Position numbers and translations under genes: made by a program. DNA of 64,000 nucleotides from the sequence record OK254198.1; one strand, written 5' to 3'. Under the pieces are notes generated by a model. It was not told the origin of the DNA, made no database searches, and saw only the letters and a program-made list of their open reading frames with translations. The number at the start of each line of letters is the position of its first letter. Positions within the stretch are counted from its first letter, which is position 1. The stretch is from Escherichia phage PSD2001. Of the stretch, positions 7,629-62,008 are shown piece after piece.

Positions 7629-7658
7629 ATTATATTAGCATAAAATTTTTAAAGCAAT
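7629..7658 (-). promoter_or_regulatory. MotA-dependent middle promoter for rnh (MotA box ATTGCTTTA plus -10 TATAAT)
   Basis: Reverse complement reads ATTGCTTTA-N12/15-TAATATAAT, ~25 nt upstream of the rnh ATG. Confidence 0.6.
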
Positions 7659-7696: not shown

Positions 7697-10600
7697 ATGG
7701 CCGATATTTTAAAACCAGCATTCAGAGCAACATCCGGTCTCGATGCTGCTGGTGAGAAAGTCATTAATGTCGCAAAAGCTGATTACTCAGTTTTATCAGA
7801 CGGCGTTAACGTAGATTTCTTTATAGAAGAAAACACAGTTCAACAATATGATGCAACACGCGGATACAAAAAGAACTTTGCAGTTATTAATGATAACCGT
7901 ATTTGGGTTGCTCAACGTGATATCGCGGCTCCTGCGGGAGCATTTACCCCTCAGTATTGGTTAGCAACTCGTACTGACCCGAAATGGGAAACTGTTGCAT
8001 CTCCAACTCGTCAGCTTAACTCGGGTGAATTTATCGCCGTCGACTCGGCTGCAAGCTTTACCACATTTACATTGCCTCCAAACCCGGTTGACGGTGATAC
8101 CATCGTTATTAAAGATATCGGTGGGAACGTTGGTTACAATGAAATTAAAATCCAGTCAAGCAACGTACCAGGGGCAGGTAACCAAAAGATTGTTCGCTTT
8201 GGTAATCAGTATCCGGAAATTTTAATTACCAAACCATTCTCTTATAACATGCTTATCTTTTCAAACCGCTTATGGCAATTTTGGGAAGCTGGCAACGAAG
8301 AACGTGGCATCAGAGTAGAACCATCAACGGGTCGTTTCCATGCACAAGCTGGCGACTTTATTATGCGTCGTTATACAACTGGTGCACCGATTACTTTCAT
8401 TCTTCCTAAGTATGCAAACCAGGGTGATATTGTCAAATCTGTTGATATCGATGGCATGGGACCAACGTTCCACCTGATGGTTGAAACTTTTGACACCAGT
8501 TCCAGTCTTGGAAAAGCTGGCCAGCATCAAATGGAATTCCGTACCACAGGTGATGGTTTCTTCGTTTATAATGCTGCCGAAAAACTCTGGTATGTTTGGG
8601 ACGGTGATAATAAAACTCGTCTGCGCGTTATTCGTGACAGTGTTAAACTTTTACCAAACGAAAGCATCATTGTATTTGGCGAAGATAACTCAACTCCGGC
8701 AACGATTAATATCGATTTACCAACTAATGTTTTACAAGGTGACATTGTTAAAATTGCGCTGAACTATCTCCGCAAATCACAGACCGTTAATATAAGAGCT
8801 GCTGTTGGTGATAAGATTGCATCTGACATTAAATTGCTACAATTCCCTAAACGTTCCGAGTATCCACCGGATACAACTTGGGTGCTGGTTGATTCATTAA
8901 CCTTTAATGGCAACATCAGTTATACTCCGGTTATTGAATTGTCATATGCAGAAGATACAGTGGCTGGAACAAGTTATTGGGTTGTCGCTCAGAACGTCCC
9001 GACTGTCGAACGAGTTGACTCATTAAATGATTCCACGCGCGCACGTCTTGGTGTTATTGCTCTGGCAAACCAGACTCAGGCAAACGTTGACCATGAAAAT
9101 AATCCAGAGAAAGAACTTGCAATTACCCCTCAGACTTTAGCCAACCGTGTTGCTAAAGAGAACCAACGAGGCATTGCCAGAATCGCAACGACTGCTCAAG
9201 TAAATCAGAACAGTGATTTTGCATTTGTTGATGATGTAATTATTTCTCCGAAAAAACTCAATGAACGTACGGCAACAGAAACGAGACGTGGGCTCGCAGA
9301 ACTCGCCACACAGCAAGAAACCGATGCAGGTGTAGATGATACCACAATTATCACTCCAAAGAAACTGCAAGCGCGTCAGGGCTCAGAATCGCTATCTGGT
9401 ATTGTAACTTACGTTTCAACGACTGGTACAACTCCTGCTGCTTCACGTGAATTAAATGGTACAAACGTTTATAATAAAAATACGGTTAATCTGGTTGTTT
9501 CCCCGAAAGCTCTTGACCAGTACAAAGCTACTTACACTCAGCAAGGCGCGGTTATTCTTGCGGTTGAAAGTGAAGTAATTGCTGGTACTTCTCAATCTGG
9601 ATGGGCAAACGCAGTCGTTACTCCAGAAATGTTACATCGCAAAACTGCTCTTGATTCCCGTATCGGTTTAATCGAGATTGCTACCCAGGTTGAAACAGAT
9701 GCAGGAACCGATTATACCAGAGCTGTGACTCCCAAAACGTTAAATGACCGTAAAGCATCAGAAACGTTAACCGGCATAGCCGAGATTGCTACGCAATCAG
9801 AATTTGATACTGGAACTGATGATACTCGTATCTCAACCCCATTAAAAATTAAAAATAGATTTAATAATACTGCTCGTACTTCTGTTAATGCATTAAGTGG
9901 TTTAGTAGAAACAGGGACGCTCTGGGACCATTATAGCCTGAATATTCTTGAAGCAAATGAGACTCAGCGTGGCACAGCAAGATTAGCAACTCAGGGCGAA
10001 GTCAATACTGGCACTGACGATAAAACAATCGTTACTCCGCTTAAATTGATGTCGAAAAAAGCTACTGAAAATGCCGAAGGTATTGTTCGCATCGCGACAA
10101 ACGCAGAAGCAACAGCAGGCACATCAAAAGTCTTGGCCATTAGTCCGTCTGCGCTGAAATATATTGCACAAACGGAAACAACCTGGGAAGCATCTGAAAC
10201 ACTGCGTGGATTTGTTCGTTTATCTTCTGGTGCAGCTACTTCGGCCGCAACTACAACGACTGGTGCAGGATTTACATATGCAAATGGTGTGTATACTCCG
10301 GACCCAAGTAAACTGGTTAGCTATGCAAAATCTGGATATGCAGTTTCGCCTTACGAATTAAACCGCGTATTGCAAAACTTCTTACCGATAAATGCAATGG
10401 CTGTTAATGCCGAAAAACTGGATAACCTCGATTCGACCCAGTTTATTCGTCGTGATATTGCTCAGACTGTTGAAGGTGCGTTAACTCTTACTAAACAGAC
10501 AAATATCTCTGCTCCGGTTGTATCGACGAGCACTGCAGTGTTTACTGATGTAACGGCTGGCACTTCGACGTTCGGAACTGTGAATGTTGTTAACGGAACT

Positions 10601-20243: not shown

Positions 20244-20852
20244 TCACTTTAAGATGTTAATAACATGTTGAATGTTTTCAGTTGACATATGATTGTCAAT
20301 GTAGGTATTCAATCCACCTACTTTAACGCTAAATCCCACGTCTGTAAACTGTTTTACTATCTTTTGTTCAGTATTATACGCATGCACGCGAATCTGACCA
20401 TCACGACGTACATCAATCTGTTTTAATGTCTTGACACGCTTGAACTTCACAATCAGATTGCTGCGGTCTTCTGAAATGCTCTTAAAGTCAATACCAATAG
20501 ACAACAATTGCTCTTTGATATATTCTGCAGTCGCTTCCATTTCATCAGTCACACCGCGTTTTGTTCTTGTCTTCTTCACTTCCAGAAGGTCAGGATTATT
20601 TTCATTCGCCCAAAGTTCAGCTGCATCCAGAATAAGGTCAACGCCTTTTTCTGTAACCATCAAACCATCACCAGAAGCTTCAACATAGTTGTTATTCAAC
20701 AATGTCTGCACACTATCAATTGATGTGTTCTGCTGGTCTAAAACAACCTCTGGACTCACGAAGTTGTTTTTGTATACAAACACCAGAGCATTGACATCAG
20801 TCTCATGCAGCGCGTTCTGGGAGCATTTAACGATATAATTTAACTTGTTCAC
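20244..20852 (-). CDS. motA: middle-transcription activator MotA
   Basis: 202 aa; SGDGL motif and overall resemblance to T4 MotA. Confidence 0.85.
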   Translation of the reverse strand: MNKLNYIVKCSQNALHETDVNALVFVYKNNFVSPEVVLDQQNTSIDSVQTLLNNNYVEASGDGLMVTEKGVDLILDAAELWANENNPDLLEVKKTRTKRGVTDEMEATAEYIKEQLLSIGIDFKSISEDRSNLIVKFKRVKTLKQIDVRRDGQIRVHAYNTEQKIVKQFTDVGFSVKVGGLNTYIDNHMSTENIQHVINILK

Positions 20853-20854
20853 AA

Positions 20855-21082
20855 TTATCCCTTAATAGATTTCATGTAATTTGATGCATATGATTGTACC
20901 ACAGTACGTTTCATATGGGAAGTAGAAACAATCACATCAATTGCTTGTTTACGTTCTTCTTTAGAGTTTGCCAGTTTGAACATGTCAAAGTAGTAGTAGC
21001 AAGCTTCTTTGTTAGATTTGAATTTGATGTTGATGTATTCTTGACCTTCATTCTGTTGTGCAGTAAACATTTTATTCTCCAA
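20855..21082 (-). CDS. hypothetical protein (75 aa)
   Basis: ORF track; early promoter cassette immediately upstream. Confidence 0.5.
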   Translation of the reverse strand: MENKMFTAQQNEGQEYINIKFKSNKEACYYYFDMFKLANSKEERKQAIDVIVSTSHMKRTVVQSYASNYMKSIKG

Positions 21083-21098
21083 AGTTTTTGTGATTCAG

Positions 21099-21151
21099 TG
21101 TGTAACTCAGTATGGAATCATTATGTCCTAAGACAAGGGGGTTGTACACTA
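21099..21151. repeat. 53-bp exact direct repeat, copy 1 (partner at ~47422-47474)
   Basis: tgtgtaactcagtatggaatcattatgtcctaagacaagggggttgtacacta read identically at both places. Confidence 0.85.
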
Positions 21152-21160
21152 CTTTTTTTA
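21119..21160 (-). promoter_or_regulatory. early promoter cassette (copy inside the 53-bp exact repeat)
   Basis: cattat...gttgtacactactttttttaaaa; upstream of 20855..21082. Confidence 0.65.
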
Positions 21161-21170
21161 AAATAAAAAA

Positions 21171-21186
21171 GGACCCCGAAGGGTCC
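21171..21186 (-). terminator. rho-independent terminator after the gene 52 unit
   Basis: ggaccccGAAgggtcc with a T-run on the minus strand. Confidence 0.7.
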
Positions 21187-21284
21187 TAGTCTTTATCTAT
21201 CTTATTACCAATAAACATACCAACAATCACACCTGCGATTGCCGCAAAAATACAAAGCAATGCAAACTCAACTCCAAAACTCAT
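21186..21284 (-). CDS. small hydrophobic peptide (32 aa), translationally coupled to the gene 52 stop; not in ORF track
   Basis: ATGA overlap with gene 52 stop; MSFGVEFALLCIFAAIAGVIVGMFIGNKIDKD; ends inside the terminator hairpin. Confidence 0.4.
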   Translation of the reverse strand: MSFGVEFALLCIFAAIAGVIVGMFIGNKIDKD

Positions 21285-22660
21285 AGAGCCTCCAAGTCAT
21301 TAAGGTATTCAGTTTTAACATCAGTTGTCTTCCAGTATTCATGCTCAGCTTTCTTAGCCTTTGCTTCGTCTGCAAGCTTCTTGGCTTCATCAGAGGTCAT
21401 ATGGTAGATGTTCATCGCCACTAACTTCTCTGCATAATCGCCATATATTTCACTTGCCTGGAGTTCCTCAATCAACTTCTTACGAGGTTTCCCCTGGATA
21501 ACAACCTTACCGTCAATCACTTCTTTAATAAAGAAGACTTTTGCCCGGGCCAGTTTAAATGCTGCTTCAGTTTCTTTAATCTTACTGTCAATTCGCACTT
21601 GAACATAAGTCTTACGGACATCAACGAAATCGCGAATCAGGTCAAGCGTGTTGGTGTATTCGGCCAGCTTACCTTTGTGATTAAGCACCGTTAAGTTCTG
21701 GGAGAGCTTCTCAATCAGACCGAAGTCTTTCATGATTTTCTCATGATTCTCTTCTTCAGTACCATCCAACTTGTATTCTTTGCGGAATTTAATCTTAAAC
21801 CCAAAACCATGCTCGCCGCAGTTATCTTTCCAGGTGATAAAACCTTTCTCTTCCAGCGGGTCCAGGATTTTACTTGTATACTTTTCCAGGTTCCATTGGA
21901 CCGGGATTTCAGTAATTTCCATTTGGGTCCTGGAGGTCATTTTGTATGTGCCATGAAGTTCATACTTACCAGGCTCTTCCAGCTCAACAACTTCACCGCG
22001 GAATTCTGGATATTTTACTTTCGGAGCAACCGGCTCACGACCTTCCACGATAGCTTTAACAGCTTCCTTGACGTCCTGGAACGAATGAGGAAGTATATCA
22101 GTAGCGAAGCCAACAGCAATCCCAGAAGTGGCGTTAAGTAATACAGTAGGAATAACAGGAAGATAAAAAGCAGGAGGCTTATGTTCTTCATCAGGATGGA
22201 CCGGAGCATATTCTGTATCCTTAAACAAGTTATAAAAGTTCTTTGAAACCCTTGCGAATACATAACGAGCTGATGATGCTTCTGGCACCATTCTGGAACC
22301 AAAGTTGCCTTGCCCATCAAACATGGGGTATTCATTTTTATATGTTGCGACCAGACCAGAAGTTGCTTCTTCCGCCGATGCTTCGCCATGGTGATAACCA
22401 TAATCAGCTACGCCGCCGGCGATAGATGCAACTTTATGGAATTTATTCTTATCACCACGAGCCAGGTCTAATGCTCTCGCCATAACAAATCTGTGAACTG
22501 GTTTAAAACCATCAATCATGTTTGGGATGGCACGACCTTCCACAGTGTAGATAGCATATGATAATGCTTCCACATCAATAATGTCTTTTAGACTGCGTGG
22601 GTTAAGGGTCCCCATGGAATCACTGAACTGTTTGGACATCATACTTAAAACGTCAGACAT
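21281..22660 (-). CDS. 52: DNA topoisomerase II medium subunit gp52
   Basis: 459 aa; GyrA/ParC-like N-terminus (...AIPNMIDGFKPVHRFV...) as in T4 gp52. Confidence 0.93.
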   Translation of the reverse strand: MSDVLSMMSKQFSDSMGTLNPRSLKDIIDVEALSYAIYTVEGRAIPNMIDGFKPVHRFVMARALDLARGDKNKFHKVASIAGGVADYGYHHGEASAEEATSGLVATYKNEYPMFDGQGNFGSRMVPEASSARYVFARVSKNFYNLFKDTEYAPVHPDEEHKPPAFYLPVIPTVLLNATSGIAVGFATDILPHSFQDVKEAVKAIVEGREPVAPKVKYPEFRGEVVELEEPGKYELHGTYKMTSRTQMEITEIPVQWNLEKYTSKILDPLEEKGFITWKDNCGEHGFGFKIKFRKEYKLDGTEEENHEKIMKDFGLIEKLSQNLTVLNHKGKLAEYTNTLDLIRDFVDVRKTYVQVRIDSKIKETEAAFKLARAKVFFIKEVIDGKVVIQGKPRKKLIEELQASEIYGDYAEKLVAMNIYHMTSDEAKKLADEAKAKKAEHEYWKTTDVKTEYLNDLEAL

Positions 22661-22668
22661 ATATCACC

Positions 22669-22809
22669 TTACCAGATTAACGAATGTACTGCCATTATAG
22701 CATCAGAAATAAAAAGCACAACCTGCACTAATGCAAACATAACTCCATAATACAACGCCACCAATAAGGTAGCAAGGGCTAACGAGTAGCCCAGGATTTT
22801 CTTAATCAT
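22669..22809 (-). CDS. small membrane protein (46 aa); not in ORF track
   Basis: ATGA overlap with the upstream gene stop; hydrophobic; ends 8 nt before the gene 52 ATG. Confidence 0.4.
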   Translation of the reverse strand: MIKKILGYSLALATLLVALYYGVMFALVQVVLFISDAIMAVHSLIW

Positions 22810-22991
22810 TTGTTAACCGCTGATTCCAGAAATTTGACTAAGGCATCCAGTACAAACCATGTGCAAATAAATCCTGCAAAAAGAGTACTTGGGACCCATA
22901 CACCTGTAGCAAAAAGAGTCACAGCAACGATAACAGCTACGAGCCAGATAAAAGTAAAAACTGTTTGCATATTTTCCTCAAGGGCGTCCAA
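22806..22991 (-). CDS. small membrane protein (61 aa), in the T4 ac/stp region
   Basis: ORF track; two predicted hydrophobic helices. Confidence 0.5.
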
Positions 22992-23059
22992 AGACGCCAG
23001 TTAATTTCAGATTATGACGATGCCATTGCATCACGTGCTCATTATGGAAATTACTCATA

Positions 23060-23509
23060 TTAATAGCTCTGCAGAATGAATTTAAAGTTATCAGCAAGCA
23101 TGCGATTCATTTCTGAAAGGGTCTGACAATCAGAACTATGTGAGCGTGTGAACGCCATCGCAATTTGACCTTTACCATAACCAGTTGTCAAAGGTTTCAT
23201 TTTAGAAACTGGAACAAACAGGACTTCATAGATAACACCATTGTTCGCCATTGTGCGCGACAGTTGTGAACGCTGTTTGCGGATGTGACTTAATACAGTG
23301 TCAAACCCTTGTTGTGAACGTTGGTTACCAACGTAAAAACGTGCAGCAACAATACGTGATTCGCCTTCACCTTTAACCACGAAATAAAAACCTGGTTGGG
23401 TGATAGCTTCTTTAGTTGGACGCCCTACAACATAATTGCCATTATGGATGTGAGCAACAGTGGTAGCGCCAGCATTCAGTACGTCACGACGGGTCATGTA
23501 AGTAGTCAT
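23060..23509 (-). CDS. ndd: nucleoid disruption protein Ndd
   Basis: 149 aa; ...PGFYF...[29 protein letters not shown]...[12 protein letters not shown]...AFTR...[15 protein letters not shown] matches T4 Ndd. Confidence 0.9.
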
Positions 23510-23552
23510 ATTAATTTCCTCAGTAAGTTAAAGTTTTGTGCTCCAGTGGGGT

Positions 23553-23592
23553 CATTATACTCTGACCCCAAGAGTTTGTACACTATTTTTGA
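23553..23592 (-). promoter_or_regulatory. early promoter cassette with stem-loop spanning the -10 region
   Basis: ggggtcattatactctgacccc ... tttgtacactattttt. Confidence 0.55.
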
Positions 23593-23927
23593 AGTTGTTC
23601 TAAAATAAATCCGCTGGTGTAAAAGGGAGCATTATAAACCTTGTTCAGTGGGTTCAAAGCCTGTCCGTAAGTATCACATAGTTCTTTGATAACATTTTCA
23701 TAGCTTACATAATAACCACTATGATAATACGGGTCCATACTCATACGAAATTTAATGAACCGATAAAAGCCTGTTTCTGGGTCTTGAACGAAAACGAAAT
23801 CAGCACTCGTCATAATTTTTGAATCTACGCCGGGAATCATACTTTGATTGAATGCCGCCGATGCATCCTGAAGGCTGAGTTGTTTAAAGAACATCACCTT
23901 AGCATTACCAAAAAAGATTTTAGACAT
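23583..23927 (-). CDS. hypothetical protein (114 aa)
   Basis: Start set at internal Met with AAGGA RBS. Confidence 0.5.
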   Translation of the reverse strand: MSKIFFGNAKVMFFKQLSLQDASAAFNQSMIPGVDSKIMTSADFVFVQDPETGFYRFIKFRMSMDPYYHSGYYVSYENVIKELCDTYGQALNPLNKVYNAPFYTSGFILEQLQK

Positions 23928-24324: not shown

Positions 24325-24435
24325 TCAGAAGTTAAAGAATACGCGTACATGGTCAATCATAAAAACAATTGGGAAAATGCTCAGGACAACAAACAGTACA
24401 AACATGTTCCAAATGGCTTTAAGTAACTTTTTCAT
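24325..24435 (-). CDS. small hydrophobic peptide (36 aa); not in ORF track
   Basis: GGAG RBS and early promoter cassette upstream; coordinates approximate. Confidence 0.35.
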   Translation of the reverse strand: MKKLLKAIWNMFVLFVVLSIFPIVFMIDHVRVFFNF

Positions 24436-24460
24436 AATCATCTCCAGTAGTTGATAGGTT

Positions 24461-32112: not shown

Positions 32113-32162
32113 CTTTCCTCTTGTGTATGGAGGTATTATAAGTCACATATTTTAAAGCAAAA

Positions 32163-42974: not shown

Positions 42975-43058
42975 TATATTTTTCCTTATCAATTCATATT
43001 GTTTGTATGTTAATTATATCATATTGGTTTAAAGCATAAATACAAGAAAGGAGGATGT

Positions 43059-43256
43059 ATGCTCAAACTATCTAGTCTAATTCAAGCCATCAAAGGCAGT
43101 CGTAAGCGAACGATTCTGGTCCTTTCGATACTCTGTTTTGTTCTACTCTGGAATTTCATTGTTGCCCCTATTGCATTGACACATGGTGTTATATTACCAG
43201 TCGTCGCGCTCGAATCAGTTGTAGATGTTTCACTAGCATTAATCGGCCTTATATAG
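43059..43256 (+). CDS. small membrane protein (65 aa) on the opposite strand to its neighbours
   Basis: Strong AAGGAGG RBS; two hydrophobic helices; ATAAATA late-promoter-like motif ~30 nt upstream. Confidence 0.5.
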   Translation: MLKLSSLIQAIKGSRKRTILVLSILCFVLLWNFIVAPIALTHGVILPVVALESVVDVSLALIGLI

Positions 43257-51342: not shown

Positions 51343-51486
51343 CTAATTAAAACATTCATAGCGGGCTTGGAGCCCCAAAAATACCCAACCCAAAATTAAA
51401 GTTGGAATCATATGTGGAGTCATTATTGCCCAGTAGATTGACATACTAAAAAATGCAATCAGTACAATAATTGTAATTATCTTCAT
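51343..51486 (-). CDS. small membrane protein (47 aa); not in ORF track
   Basis: ATGA overlap with the imm stop; hydrophobic; AGGAAG RBS for the lipoprotein follows. Confidence 0.4.
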   Translation of the reverse strand: MKIITIIVLIAFFSMSIYWAIMTPHMIPTLILGWVFLGLQARYECFN

Positions 51487-58666: not shown

Positions 58667-60349
58667 TCATTCCAGAACAGTAAATCGACCGACTTTTTTC
58701 ATTTGAAGATGCTGCCCATATGCTTCTGGGTCGTGTTCACGATGGCTAATGATAAACACGTTTTGACCTTCCAATTTATTAATAATTGCCTGGATAGCTT
58801 TGATGCCTTCGGCGTCAGTGGCTGAATCCATGACCTCATCCAGAATCAACGTACTAATTTGCACACCAGATACTTTCGCAGCAATATCACGCCATGTAAA
58901 CAGCAATGCAATATCGATACGAGCTTTTTCGCCCTGGCTAAATGATGCATAGCTGAAGTCTTCACGTCCACGAGATTTAATCGTTTCGTTGAACTCTTCA
59001 TCTAACGTAAAACTATAATCAGCTTCCATAACTTTAAGGTAAGCGTTTATCTGCTTATTAAAGATAGGAATATATTTCTTAATAATCGCACCTTTGATAC
59101 CAGAATCTTTCAACATATCCGTTAGGATGCCACGTTGATATTTTTCCATCACAAGGTCAGATTTCTGTTTGACTATTTTATCAAGCTGGTCTTGAAGCAT
59201 TTTAATGTCTGCTGCATGGTCAATAAATTCTGACTTAGCTTGCTCGATTAATGCTTTAACCTTTTTAGCCTTTTCAACAGTCTGGACTAAGGTTTGTTTC
59301 TTAGTTTGAATGTCTTGGGCTATTGTACGCTGGTTTTGTCTTGCAGCAGAATACGTATCAAATTGCTCCTGAACAGCATTCTGACGAGCTTTATGCTTAT
59401 CAGCTGATGCATTACATTCTTCAATCTTTGACTCAATCCTGGCGACAATGGGGTCTCCTGGATGCAACTGACTGGCACAAGTCTGACAGCAACCACCTTT
59501 CTCGTACAGACCAACAACCTTTCGGTAATCGTCAATCTTCGATTTAATCAGGAATGATTCCTGCTTTAACTTCGTGAGTTCATGCTCAGGGTCTTCTCCC
59601 AAGATTATCTCGGTCAGTCTTGTCGTTGCTTCTTCGATAGTCGTTTTGATTCCACGTGCTTCCGTGGCAAGTTCATCATACATCGTTTGCAGCCGCAACA
59701 GATTATCACCTGATAATTTTCTTTGACGGTCTTCGTTGTCCTGATAGATTTTAATCTGTTGAACAATACCATCATGCTGCACATCCATCACCTGGATTTG
59801 ACTATTGACTTCGCGGATAAGAGATTTGTTCAGCTTATCCATATCGGCCAGTACAGAAACCTCTAAAAGGTCTTCGACAAGTTTTCTTCTTGCAGGAGTG
59901 GATAGGCCCATAAAAGGGGTATATCCAGCTGTGCCGAGTACGACAATCTGTTTGAAGCTTGCATAGGACATTCCGATAAGCTGTTCAAATTCTGCTTGGA
60001 AGTCTTTACTGCTGGCAGATTCATCAAGACGTTTACCGCCACAAGAGATTTCAAAAACATTGGGTTTTTGCCCGCGTTTGATATAGTATTCTTTTCCATC
60101 ATATTCCATCCACAATTCAACGAGCATATCTTTTTTGTTGCTCGAGTTAATCAACTGGCCTTTCTTTACATCACGGAAAGGCTTACCGAACATAGCAAAG
60201 GTAACCGCTTCAAGGAACGTAGATTTACCCGCACCATTCTTACCGGTGACCAGAGTTTTTTGGACTTTATCCAGTTCAACAGTAATCGGTTGAGCACCAA
60301 CCGACATAATATTTTTATAGATAACTTTCTTAAGCTTAAAAGTCTTCAC
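58667..60349 (-). CDS. 46: recombination endonuclease subunit gp46 (Rad50/SbcC-like ATPase)
   Basis: 560 aa; Walker A GKNGAGKSTFLEA; coiled-coil middle; same length as T4 gp46. Confidence 0.95.
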   Translation of the reverse strand: MKTFKLKKVIYKNIMSVGAQPITVELDKVQKTLVTGKNGAGKSTFLEAVTFAMFGKPFRDVKKGQLINSSNKKDMLVELWMEYDGKEYYIKRGQKPNVFEISCGGKRLDESASSKDFQAEFEQLIGMSYASFKQIVVLGTAGYTPFMGLSTPARRKLVEDLLEVSVLADMDKLNKSLIREVNSQIQVMDVQHDGIVQQIKIYQDNEDRQRKLSGDNLLRLQTMYDELATEARGIKTTIEEATTRLTEIILGEDPEHELTKLKQESFLIKSKIDDYRKVVGLYEKGGCCQTCASQLHPGDPIVARIESKIEECNASADKHKARQNAVQEQFDTYSAARQNQRTIAQDIQTKKQTLVQTVEKAKKVKALIEQAKSEFIDHAADIKMLQDQLDKIVKQKSDLVMEKYQRGILTDMLKDSGIKGAIIKKYIPIFNKQINAYLKVMEADYSFTLDEEFNETIKSRGREDFSYASFSQGEKARIDIALLFTWRDIAAKVSGVQISTLILDEVMDSATDAEGIKAIQAIINKLEGQNVFIISHREHDPEAYGQHLQMKKVGRFTVLE

Positions 60350-60564: not shown

Positions 60565-60802
60565 CCTTGATGCATGATTCAGCCATATGAATTAATGTCT
60601 CTGGGGTATCATCTTCCATTACATTAAAGCTAAATTCTACGGCCCAATCGGTGACTACATAGACTTTGATAAGTTGACCGGTTTCCCGGTCAGTGATAGC
60701 TTCAAACCAATACTTAATAGTATTCGGTTGATTATCGTCGTCAACCACATCACATTCGCGGATATGTTCAAGACCCGCTTCATTAAAATCATAAAGTCTC
60801 AC
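60539..60802 (-). CDS. hypothetical protein (87 aa), 46.2-like
   Basis: ORF track. Confidence 0.5.
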   Translation of the reverse strand: MRLYDFNEAGLEHIRECDVVDDDNQPNTIKYWFEAITDRETGQLIKVYVVTDWAVEFSFNVMEDDTPETLIHMAESCIKDAYYDEDF

Positions 60803-61818
60803 GGTTGCACCTCAAGGTATAATTTGTTGGCCAATGCTTTGAGAGCTTTTGACTCTTTCTCATTGGCGTCAGGTAATGCATCGATATATTCTGCCATCAT
60901 ATCTGTTAAGCGTTTTATGTCTAACTCTTCATCAGAGTCTGATGTGTCAACACTGTTATCAACCTTATTGACAACACGCAATTCATGCACACGCTTTTCT
61001 AATTCAGATTCAAACTTGGTCAGGTCTTTATCGACTTTTTCTACAATAACACGGACTGATAAGTCTTTGAAGTCGTCGTAATTAATAGTTTCGTTTGGAT
61101 AGAAAATCTTCCGATGCCAGGTGGTTTCATTCGGAATAAATTTCATCTCTTCGGTTTCTGTATCAAATTCCCAGAATCCGCGCGGGTCATTCTCATCACC
61201 TGCTGTTAATGTCCATGGTGTCCCGATGTACTTAACGTTTGCAGCTTCTGAAATTGTGTGGAAGTGACCAGACCAAACTTGCTTGTACTTCTTAAGGAAA
61301 TCAGGCTCAAGTCCGTGAGATTTCAATCCTTTATAGAAATAAAACCCAGTTAATTCCCAGTGACCGATGCAATATTCAGCCCCAGAAGTTTTGATGTGTT
61401 GATGAATGTCAGTTGCGTTCTCGTCGCACATCCATGGAATCATATCAATCTGGCAACCGTCAAAATCAACAGTCGTTGGCTTATCATAGATTTTAACATG
61501 GTCATACTTATTCAGGAGTTCGGTGATAGCATTAGGATGAATCTTATTCTTCAGATTCATGTCATGATTCCCGACTATCGTGTGCATAGTAATTCCTGCT
61601 TCACGAAGGAGTTCCATAATCTCACGGCTGAATTCCATCGTCTTATGCGTTACGGCCTTACGGACGTCAAAAATATCCCCATATTGAATCCAGACTTTAA
61701 TCCCATTCGCTTTGGAATATGCAATCGCTTGTAAAATACCATCGCGTTGAATGTTTTGAGCCCATGGGTCGTCAGCTTTGACACCTAAGTGCCAATCACC
61801 TAAATTTAAAATTTTCAT
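60799..61818 (-). CDS. 47: recombination endonuclease subunit gp47 (Mre11/SbcD-like)
   Basis: 339 aa from internal Met MKILNLGDWHLG (phosphoesterase motif I); GNHD motif. Confidence 0.93.
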   Translation of the reverse strand: MKILNLGDWHLGVKADDPWAQNIQRDGILQAIAYSKANGIKVWIQYGDIFDVRKAVTHKTMEFSREIMELLREAGITMHTIVGNHDMNLKNKIHPNAITELLNKYDHVKIYDKPTTVDFDGCQIDMIPWMCDENATDIHQHIKTSGAEYCIGHWELTGFYFYKGLKSHGLEPDFLKKYKQVWSGHFHTISEAANVKYIGTPWTLTAGDENDPRGFWEFDTETEEMKFIPNETTWHRKIFYPNETINYDDFKDLSVRVIVEKVDKDLTKFESELEKRVHELRVVNKVDNSVDTSDSDEELDIKRLTDMMAEYIDALPDANEKESKALKALANKLYLEVQP

Positions 61819-61958
61819 AAGCCAAGCACCGTTATCGCAATGCAAAATAAAATTACTGAAATGAACCCGTCAGGAGTAGAAAAGAATCCTATCCAACAAG
61901 CTCTTGTGAATGTGTAGAATGCCATGAATAACACGACATATCCTAAAAATAATTCCAT
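61815..61958 (-). CDS. small membrane protein (47 aa), translationally coupled to gene 47; not in ORF track
   Basis: GAGGAG RBS; stop overlaps the gp47 ATG; hydrophobic. Confidence 0.4.
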   Translation of the reverse strand: MELFLGYVVLFMAFYTFTRACWIGFFSTPDGFISVILFCIAITVLGL

Positions 61959-62008
61959 ATACTCTCCTCAGTTGGTTCATTTTATCATCCCGAATATAAA
62001 GCAAAAAA

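Follow-up and report, generated by a model that had tools for sequence, protein, structure and literature searches.

Conserved genes for predicted tiny membrane proteins beside genes 52 and 47 of a T4-like coliphage

Several very short, hydrophobic reading frames lie next to the genes for the topoisomerase II medium subunit (gene 52) and a recombination nuclease subunit (gene 47) in a T4-like coliphage, and this raises the question of whether the frames are genes and, if so, what their products do. The DNA analysed, called the window here, is a stretch of 64,000 nt from a member of the genus Gaprivervirus and is 97% identical to phage DK-13. The cluster of ndd, small ORFs and gene 52, as well as the 47.1-47 pair, is on the minus strand throughout (Table 1). 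Both are syntenic with T4, where the order is ndd-stp-ac-52.1-52-motA.1 and 47.1-47, and this agrees with the first-pass annotation of the window, which had stated that ac and stp lie in this neighbourhood in T4. The products of genes 52 and 47 are 70% and 72% identical to T4 gp52 and gp47, and AAGGTGA precedes the gene 52 start. The small ORFs are annotated in relatives as well.

Table 1. Features of the two loci, in window coordinates.
Feature	Coordinates	Strand	Basis
Intrinsic terminator, AGGACCCTTCGGGGTCCT then TTTTTTATTTT	21170..21187	-	Sequence search
Predicted 32-aa single-helix hydrophobic protein, phrog_16377, G18xxxG22xxxG26 motif	21186..21284	-	PHROG match, dN/dS
Gene 52, topoisomerase II medium subunit, 459 aa	21281..22660	-	Listed ORF and comparison with VR7, VR25, DK-13
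gp52.1 orthologue, 46 aa, Pfam DUF7396	22669..22809	-	40/46 residues as T4 gp52.1; profile matches
Predicted 54-aa two-helix hydrophobic protein, phrog_9347, T4 ac position	22806..22970	-	PHROG match; dN/dS 0.38; frame control
stp, 26 aa, missed by the first-pass annotation	22978..23058	-	T4 Stp 20/26 residues; PF08133; phrog_6763
ndd, nucleoid disruption protein, 149 aa, first in cluster	23060..23509	-	Listed ORF; Ndd annotation at matching position in VR7, VR25, DK-13
Gene 47, SbcD-like recombination nuclease subunit, 339 aa, ATG 61818	60799..61818	-	ORF and comparison
gp47.1 orthologue, 47 aa, predicted helical hairpin, invariant RACWIGFFSTPDGFIS core	61815..61958	-	phrog_6693; T4 comparison
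MotA-box middle-promoter match (TGCTTTA, 12 nt, TAAAAT), 21 nt upstream of gp47.1 ATG	61979..62003	-	Consensus only

Four membrane-like ORFs had been proposed around the two enzyme genes, and all four are present on the minus strand and strongly hydrophobic, with GRAVY values of 1.49, 1.68, 1.35 and 1.62 (range 1.35–1.68). They are short, and hydrophobicity by itself is weak evidence, because 15 of the 262 ATG-initiated ORFs of 30–65 aa in the window (5.7%) reach a GRAVY of at least 1.3. The possibility that they are chance open frames within AT-rich intergenic DNA is scarcely credible, however, and is refuted by the comparative data. Purifying selection on each small ORF is confined to the called frame (pN/pS 0.07–0.37, as against 0.7–4.9 in the shifted frames), with dN/dS of 0.06–0.38 across the four ORFs. 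Each matches a PHROG profile over its full length (E-values 1.7e-9 to 5.7e-31), Shine-Dalgarno motifs stand upstream of the starts, and conservation reaches T4 and Klebsiella phages. Indels among homologues leave the frame intact, giving forms of 29, 32 and 34 aa. Conservation of the reading frames in related phages had been named in the first-pass annotation as a check on the proposal; the frames are conserved and under purifying selection. Judged by these comparisons, the four ORFs are genuine conserved genes for predicted tiny membrane proteins. That genes of this kind lie beside T4-type topoisomerase and nuclease genes is already known.

Two of the ORFs are, by sequence, orthologues of the named T4 genes gp52.1 and gp47.1. 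Like T4 gp52.1 ('conserved hypothetical predicted membrane protein'), the window protein has 46 aa, is encoded directly upstream of gene 52 and ends in LFISD.IM..HSL.W; the gap to gene 52 is 4 nt in T4 and 8 nt in the window, and the two do not otherwise differ materially. Residues 1–46 of 46 match PF24129 (73.2 bits, cut-off 27), the match to phrog_3595 has an E-value of 7.6e-24, and dN/dS is 0.24. In 32 of the 32 related loci that have gp52.1, it adjoins gene 52 on the same strand. A T4 deletion that extends from gp52.1 to rIIB is viable (PMC9712115).

The second orthologue is about 80% identical to T4 gp47.1 ('hypothetical predicted membrane protein') and shares with it the core and a 4-nt ATGA overlap with gene 47. 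It differs in carrying one additional N-terminal residue and in that members of the window's genus either have it or lack it as one exact cassette. It matches phrog_6693 along residues 1–47 of 47 (E-value 5.7e-31), alignments show the conserved core RACW.GFFSTPDGFIS, and dN/dS is 0.20. AF2 models, which were built on shallow alignments and reach pLDDT 74–76, place predicted helices at residues 2–24 and 29–44; a helix of about 16 residues, as in gp47.1, is less than a membrane span usually takes. VR25 and VR26 lack an exact 141-nt block from ATG to ATG that holds gp47.1, and the gp47 of these phages is 97% identical. The GAGGAG ahead of the gp47.1 start thus serves either gp47.1 or gene 47. The candidate middle promoter farther upstream belongs to a pattern that matches the window 8 times, where 1.7 matches are expected. 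An exhaustive HMMER search of 1.84 billion representatives with the gp47.1 profile returned its own cluster only, from T-even phages. When 5.8 billion proteins were searched, gp47.1 matched 5 clusters and the 54-aa ORF matched 3, each of them closely related and from T-even phages; distant or cellular homologues of either were not found in these large protein searches.

The other two ORFs belong to the PHROG families phrog_9347 and phrog_16377 and occupy the T4 ac and motA.1 positions; profile comparisons indicate that they are not homologous to the T4 genes there. Upstream of them the true stp gene begins 1 nt past the ndd stop. Its product matches PF08133 at 55.3 bits (cut-off 25) and phrog_6763 at an E-value of 2e-19, and resembles T4 Stp in its length, its place directly after ndd and the identity of residues 1–11. 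The two differ by F12W, Y13H and N15H within the N-terminal 18 residues, which are almost invariant in Stp and to which loss-of-function mutations map; Stp inhibits type Ic restriction and activates PrrC (PMC3014915). The window Stp is hydrophilic and thus stands apart from the four hydrophobic peptides. A Stp or Ac identity was rejected for each of the four, Stp being a separate gene and the ORF in the ac slot a member of phrog_9347.

That ORF had been called as 61 aa from a TTG at 22991 (22806..22991). The supported start is the ATG at 22970, with GAGGA four bases upstream, giving 54 aa; the homologues and the DK-13 annotation begin at the equivalent ATG, and the longer version would overlap stp by 14 nt. 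The AF2 model of the 54-aa ORF has predicted helices at residues 2–21 and 28–52 (pLDDT 76). The ORF is therefore like T4 Ac in its predicted two-helix hairpin, its similar size and its place in the stp-52.1 slot, and differs from it in family. In the PHROG search it matched phrog_9347 only and not the Ac family phrog_2501, its homologues are annotated as hypothetical proteins, and descent from Ac was rejected (hhalign of phrog_9347 against phrog_2501, probability 0.4%). The two families occur as neighbours in three related phages, L014, L020 and L043, and Yersinia phage P8, of the same group, has a true Ac-family ORF in the stp-52.1 slot. T4 Ac confers acriflavine sensitivity on the infected cell, an effect known for that protein only, and a preprint proposes that Ac blocks the efflux pump AcrAB-TolC (10.1101/2025.06.30.662393). 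The same phenotype should not be assumed for the 54-aa ORF, because it belongs to a different family and the two families co-occur. A search of the six-frame translation of the window with the Ac-family HMM found no Ac-family ORF, so that what links the 54-aa ORF to acriflavine is its position. Having no Ac-family gene, the phage would be expected to resist acriflavine naturally, unless phrog_9347 acts as an Ac analogue.

The 32-aa ORF follows gene 52, and its GGAGG sits within the last codons of that gene. It was found in 27 phage records and is annotated, as hypothetical, in DK-13 and VR7. It matches phrog_16377 at an E-value of 1.7e-9, with a weak match to phrog_28787, and has a dN/dS of 0.06 (78 synonymous and 17 non-synonymous differences). 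T4 MotA.1 ('hypothetical predicted periplasmic protein') resembles it in an ATG that overlaps the gene 52 stop by ATGA and in being very hydrophobic, with small residues spaced for helix packing, and differs from it in length and family (49 aa, phrog_3487). The 32-aa ORF as a diverged MotA.1 was rejected, since hhalign against phrog_3487 gave a probability of 0.6%. The TAG stop of the ORF lies within the foot of the terminator stem, and the terminator is unchanged in relatives with a different 32-aa allele.

In 27 of 41 related loci, gene 52 is followed by a strongly hydrophobic ORF with a start codon that overlaps the stop codon of gene 52, and these ORFs fall into about ten unrelated families. 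The control count, taken at the ends of the remaining long ORFs of those loci, is 4 of 110. The related loci are those with at least 50% gp52 identity, retrieved with an alignment query (a single-protein query returned 4 loci). The post-52 ORF is missing in about a third of the relatives, including clades with the same ...EAL C-terminus of gp52. The enrichment could mean a link with gp52; the accessory-module explanation given below treats it as incidental.

Each of the four ORFs had been described as overlapping its enzyme gene by an ATGA. This holds for the start of the 32-aa ORF at the gene 52 stop (ctATGAgt) and for the gp47.1 stop at the gene 47 start (ttATGAaa; junction ggcttATGAaaatt), where T4 likewise has a 4-nt overlap. 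It does not hold for the other two: the stop of the 54-aa ORF forms an ATGA overlap with the start of gp52.1 and not with gene 52, and gp52.1 ends in TAA, followed by 8 nt (ggtgatat) and the gene 52 ATG. There are 25 ATGA junctions on the coding strand of the window, compared with 2.3 in shuffled sequence; they are common across the genome and not peculiar to the small peptides. The broader proposal that the peptides are membrane-like and probably translationally coupled is supported.

Between genomes with flanking genes that are 96–97% identical, identity falls to 66% for the 54-aa ORF and to 57% for the 32-aa ORF. The alleles of the two ORFs assort independently, and the divergence is bounded exactly by the ORF body. 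Positive selection was rejected as the source of the divergent alleles, given their saturated dS (about 1.2) and a dN/dS near 0.3. On these patterns, each of the two ORFs without a T4 counterpart is a cassette that can be exchanged and whose alleles have diverged deeply. Small ORFs, including PeSL cassettes, are described as being shuffled in modular fashion within T4-type hyperplastic regions (PMC2839356, PMC4122927). In outline, PeSL cassettes are similar in that small ORFs are replaced, gained or lost between close T4-type genomes at short conserved junctions, and differ in that those junctions are promoter-stem-loop motifs, whereas here they are a Shine-Dalgarno motif with ATG, an ATGA or a terminator.

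The first-pass annotation had also suggested that the peptides may have defence-related roles. PADLOC-DB contained no defence-family match for any of the five peptides at E-values up to 1, and scans of Pfam, NCBIfam and PADLOC returned only DUF7396 and PF08133, with no functional family for the four hydrophobic peptides. Comparison by hhalign among all six small-ORF families gave probabilities below 4% in every case. A literature search found no functional studies of T4 gp52.1, gp47.1 or motA.1. Nothing in the analysis ties the four peptides to host defence, and the sole indirect hints of a role in conflict are patchy presence and cassette swapping.

We consider it likely that the peptides are small inner-membrane proteins of the T-even accessory gene set, packed and exchanged beside enzyme genes. 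From the arrangement of the genes, a probable early transcript would carry ndd, stp, the 54-aa ORF, 52.1, 52 and the 32-aa ORF in that order and end at the terminator, while a MotA-type middle transcript would begin just before 47.1 and run into genes 47 and 46. With its own Shine-Dalgarno motif or an ATGA junction, each small ORF would be made together with its neighbours. Each peptide would sit in the inner membrane of the host as a unit of one or two helices and may act by helix-helix packing against membrane proteins of the host or the phage; this mechanism is probable by analogy with T4 Ac and AcrAB-TolC, the mechanism of Ac being itself a preprint proposal. They would be dispensable accessory modules and not parts of the topoisomerase or the nuclease. 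The ORF body would be swapped or lost between the short conserved junctions, and exchange limited in this way would keep the expression of the essential neighbour.

A place in phage-host or phage-phage conflict, as membrane inhibitors or triggers of host defence or as superinfection-exclusion factors, is possible, though we judge it unlikely. The operon shared with stp and ndd points in this direction, as does the restriction of the gp47.1 family to T-even phages, and patchy presence with deeply diverged alleles swapped among near-identical genomes is typical of accessory conflict genes. The database scans argue against it, as does the selection on the alleles, which is purifying with dN not raised, and similar small hydrophobic conserved ORFs occur in the window away from such genes. 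It is distinctly doubtful that the peptides, supplied in step through ATGA coupling, serve the adjacent enzymes as membrane tethers or accessory subunits and so bring topoisomerase II or the gp46/47 nuclease to the membrane. The excess of strongly hydrophobic post-52 ORFs over those at other long-ORF stops, drawn from so many families, would fit such a role, as would the constant position of gp52.1 beside gene 52. Yet many relatives manage without a post-52 ORF, some of them with an identical gp52 C-terminus, gp47.1 is cleanly missing beside a nearly identical gp47 in VR25 and VR26, and the T4 deletion that removes 52.1 is viable. The T4 topoisomerase purifies as gp39/gp52/gp60 and is not known to carry further subunits, which also counts against tethering.

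Translation itself might be what matters, with 47.1 as a leader ORF through which termination-reinitiation would govern the translation of gene 47, and the 32-aa ORF sending ribosomes into the terminator stem to tune motA read-through. The ATG-to-ATG indel shows that 47.1 took the strong Shine-Dalgarno motif of gene 47, which keeps only GGTG 8 nt upstream and the ATGA junction, and the position of the TAG stop in the stem foot is consistent with the second part. Such a role in cis is very improbable given that the amino-acid sequences are conserved (RACWIGFFSTPDGFIS nearly invariant, dN/dS 0.06–0.20) and that hydrophobicity, unneeded for a purely cis role, is retained over the unrelated post-52 families. 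There is also a slim chance that the post-52 position and the pre-52 array are dedicated slots, which would repeatedly recruit unrelated one- or two-helix membrane peptides coupled to gp52 translation and serve a convergent function tied to the topoisomerase or to a single host membrane target.

As first stated, the finding adds little, since the ORFs are already annotated in T4 and sister phages and belong to Pfam or PHROG families; the analysis corrects one start codon and places the real stp gene. Positional annotation of the stp-52.1 slot is unsafe, as the slot can hold an Ac-family gene or an unrelated family within one genus. The loci also illustrate cleanly how small-gene cassettes are exchanged where translation signals form the junctions. 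Should the post-52 enrichment have a functional basis, it would offer a way into a class of phage micro-proteins that have no assigned role. Were the slots dedicated, the convergent function might be tied to the topoisomerase, for example by tethering the enzyme or the replication origin to the membrane, or be directed at one target in the host membrane, for instance an efflux pump or a defence sensor bound to the membrane. With a single host target, Ac, phrog_9347 and the peptides at the MotA.1 position would be interchangeable analogues.

Over its full length the interval 20800-23600 is 93-97% identical to Escherichia phages DK-13, VR20, VR25, VR7, and SP18, T4-like myoviruses of the genus Gaprivervirus, subfamily Tevenvirinae. 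The minus strand carries all genes of both sites (see table). The gene 52 layout is that of T4 (ndd-stp-ac-52.1-52-motA.1-motA), except that T4 has no gene between motA.1 and motA, where the window has a 75-aa ORF (phrog_17275, 1.2e-52); the T4 order at the gene 47 site is 47.1-47-46.2-46.1-46. The T4 analogy drawn in the first-pass annotation holds for the neighbourhood but not for the ORF assignment: the 54-aa ORF is not Ac, and stp is separate.

Features of the gene 52 and gene 47 sites and MotA-box matches in the window
Feature	Position	Strand	Place in order	dN/dS
ndd	23060-23509	-	gene 52 cluster, first	
stp	22978-23058	-	second	0.07
54-aa ORF	22806-22970	-	third	0.38
gp52.1	22669-22809	-	fourth	0.24
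gene 52	21281-22660	-	fifth	
32-aa ORF	21186-21284	-	sixth	0.06 (78 synonymous, 17 non-synonymous differences)
Intrinsic terminator	21170-21187	-	seventh	
75-aa hydrophilic ORF	20855-21082	-	between terminator and motA	
MotA-box promoter match	61979-62003	-	gene 47 site, first	
47-aa ORF (gp47.1)	61815-61958	-	after MotA-box match	0.20
gene 47	60799-61818	-	after gp47.1; then 46.2, 46.1, gene 46	
MotA-box matches, coding strand (six)	7632-7656, 9930-9955, 32135-32159, 43013-43036, 59175-59199, 61979-62003	-		

Of the 26 residues of the stp product, 20 are shared with T4 Stp, and its score on Pfam PF08133 is 55.3 bits (cut-off 25); this is a real stp gene. The product differs from T4 Stp by F12W, Y13H, and N15H, all in the N-terminal 18 residues, which are almost invariant and to which loss-of-function mutations map (review, PMC3014915). 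The same allele is found in two related loci (L014, L043), and Yersinia phage vB_YenM_P8 (PP693301.1) has a further variant, H15Y and P26S. The TTG at 22991, previously taken as the start of a 61-aa version of the 54-aa ORF, falls inside stp; the supported start is ATG 22970, also the start in homologues of this hydrophobic ORF and in the DK-13 annotation. The final stp codons hold a G+C-rich hairpin, GGCGTCTTTGGACGCC (22983-22998, minus strand), immediately before the GAGGA of the 54-aa ORF; no T-run lies behind it on the coding strand, and it is unchanged in VR20, VR25, and VR7 despite the different following ORF.

The four small ORFs (54-aa ORF, gp52.1, 32-aa ORF, and gp47.1) are present and very hydrophobic, as first noted (GRAVY 1.49, 1.68, 1.35, and 1.62; 19-residue maxima 2.1-2.8). 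Hydrophobicity alone is weak evidence, because a GRAVY of 1.3 is reached by 15 of the window's 262 ATG-ORFs of 30-65 aa, most of them inside other genes. Families were built from 80 gene-52 and 41 gene-47 neighbourhoods in viral contigs, and their pooled Nei-Gojobori dN/dS is 0.06-0.38. The called frame has by a wide margin the lowest pN/pS (0.07-0.37 vs 0.7-4.9 in shifted frames), the pairwise counts being phylogenetically non-independent but clear in direction. This comparative evidence shows all four evolving as genes. Each also has a credible predicted ribosome-binding context: GAGGA before the 54-aa ORF, the ATGA junction for 52.1, GGAGG within the final codons of gene 52 for the 32-aa ORF, and GAGGAG before 47.1. 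Other small hydrophobic ORFs that match PHROG families along their whole length lie at 24325-24441 (-, phrog_3098), 51343-51486 (-, phrog_3610, joined by ATGA to an 80-aa ORF), and 43059-43256 (+, phrog_2024), so small membrane-protein genes occur genome-wide and not only beside genes 52 and 47.

Gp52.1 is identical to T4 gp52.1 at 40 of 46 residues and matches Pfam DUF7396 over its full length (73 bits). The 47-aa ORF is T4 gp47.1 (phrog_6693, E-value 5.7e-31); its core, RACWIGFFSTPDGFIS, hardly varies, and its AF2 model is a helical hairpin (helices 2-24 and 29-44, pLDDT 74). When 1.84 billion representative proteins were searched exhaustively with the gp47.1 profile, only its own cluster came back, making it an orphan limited to T-even phages. 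The 54-aa ORF belongs to phrog_9347, its AF2 helices 2-21 and 28-52 flanking a conserved GVWVP turn. Assignment to the Ac family (phrog_2501) was rejected (hhalign probability 0.4%), and L014, L020, and L043 carry both families next to each other. The 32-aa ORF belongs to phrog_16377 by PHROG match and, as hhalign also indicates, not to the MotA.1 family (phrog_3487); it reads as one hydrophobic helix carrying the pattern G18xxxG22xxxG26, plus a charged tail, gives a weak Gly-zipper match in a profile scan, and is found in 27 phage records, often without annotation. No member of the Ac, MotA.1, or phrog_5941 families was found in the 64-kb window.

Annotation of these genes varies among relatives. 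In Shigella phage SP18 (GQ981382.1, 166000-166162) the 54-aa ORF is unannotated, and tblastn recovers it as two fragments with 89.5% identity; a frameshift or a pseudogene is possible there. In phage P8 the 141-nt CDS at the gp52.1 position (L129, 776-916), which immediately precedes the topoisomerase gene, is labelled 'recombination endonuclease subunit' and the CDS upstream of it 'clamp loader small subunit'; both labels look like annotation errors. Gene 52 is annotated as 445 aa from a later ATG in VR7 and as 459 aa in VR25 and DK-13 (L001 1485 vs L002 1440). In the window the longer form is favoured, because AAGGTGA precedes ATG 22660, 8 nt after the gp52.1 TAA.

The proposed ATGA overlap with an enzyme gene is found for the 32-aa ORF (gene 52 stop) and 47.1 (gene 47 start), but not for gp52.1 or for the 54-aa ORF, which overlaps 52.1. 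Such junctions are a general trait of the genome, with 25 on the coding strand among ORFs of at least 28 aa vs 2.3 in shuffled sequence. The MotA-box middle-promoter pattern (TGCTTYA, 11-13 nt, TANNNT) matches 8 times on both strands of the window vs 1.7 expected, and not once on the coding strand inside the ndd-52 cluster.

Among close relatives, two of the ORFs behave as exchangeable cassettes. At the nucleotide level ndd, stp, 52.1, and gene 52 share 96-98% identity with VR25 or VR7, but the 54-aa ORF shares just 66% with either; the 32-aa ORF is 57% identical to VR26 and VR7. The two ORFs vary independently of each other: VR25 carries the alternative allele at the 54-aa ORF alone, VR26 at the 32-aa ORF alone, and VR7 at both. 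Divergence starts immediately past the ATG and ends at the AATGA junction (54-aa ORF) or the terminator (32-aa ORF), between identical flanks. With dS saturated (1.2-1.3) and dN/dS about 0.3 between alleles, these are old alleles swapped by recombination and did not arise through recent positive selection. With 96% identity in its flanks, phage P8 has a true Ac-family member (phrog_2501, 84 bits) between stp and 52.1, giving this slot at least three alternative occupants in one close group. VR25 and VR26 lack gp47.1: the missing block measures exactly 141 nt and spans the distance between its start ATG and that of gene 47, so that GAGGAG-tatATG serves 47.1 in the window and gene 47 in those phages. 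Where 47.1 is present, gene 47 keeps GGTG 8 nt upstream and the ATGA junction, and functional translational coupling of the pair has good comparative support.

In 42 loci whose gp52 is at least 50% identical, the stretch from ndd to gene 52 holds a variable array from five small-ORF families (stp, phrog_5941, Ac, phrog_9347, and 52.1), in which 52.1 always adjoins gene 52. A strongly hydrophobic ORF (22-77 aa) starts across the gene 52 stop in 27 of 41 loci, from about ten unrelated sequence families; because the loci are mutually related, independent events are nearer the number of families than 27. Where other long ORFs of these loci end, the figure is 4/110 (base rate of any ATG, 4.6%). This enrichment is the one feature that generic genome packing cannot fully explain. 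Clades lacking the ORF (L026-L028, L054) read GAGGCTCTTTAAGAGCTT at the gene 52 stop vs GAGGCTCTATGAG in the window, retaining the gp52 C-terminus ...EAL with TAA in place of ATGA.

The small ORFs are thus protein-coding, hydrophobic, conserved, neighbour-coupled, and act as exchangeable modules. A purely cis role is weakened by their amino-acid-level conservation. A role as topoisomerase subunit or tether fits the enrichment after gene 52, but clean absence among close relatives weakens it. Defence or counter-defence is possible, as stp lies in the same operon (PMC3014915) and presence and absence follow a pattern that accessory conflict genes would show; none of the analyses run gave it direct support, and PADLOC defence profiles matched none of the peptides. 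The peptides would insert into the inner membrane and may act on membrane proteins of host or phage via helix-helix contacts. T4 Ac is the sole relative in the neighbourhood with a phenotype: its expression makes cells acriflavine-sensitive, and a block of AcrAB-TolC has been proposed in a preprint (10.1101/2025.06.30.662393) and cited as an assumption (PMC13250531). T4 survives a deletion that reaches from gp52.1 to rIIB (PMC9712115), which makes these genes dispensable under laboratory conditions.

The earlier observation is largely right but for three corrections, and the finding is already known and minor, since the ORFs are annotated in T4 or sister phages and in family databases. Only the cassette behaviour and the slot after gene 52 are mildly new.
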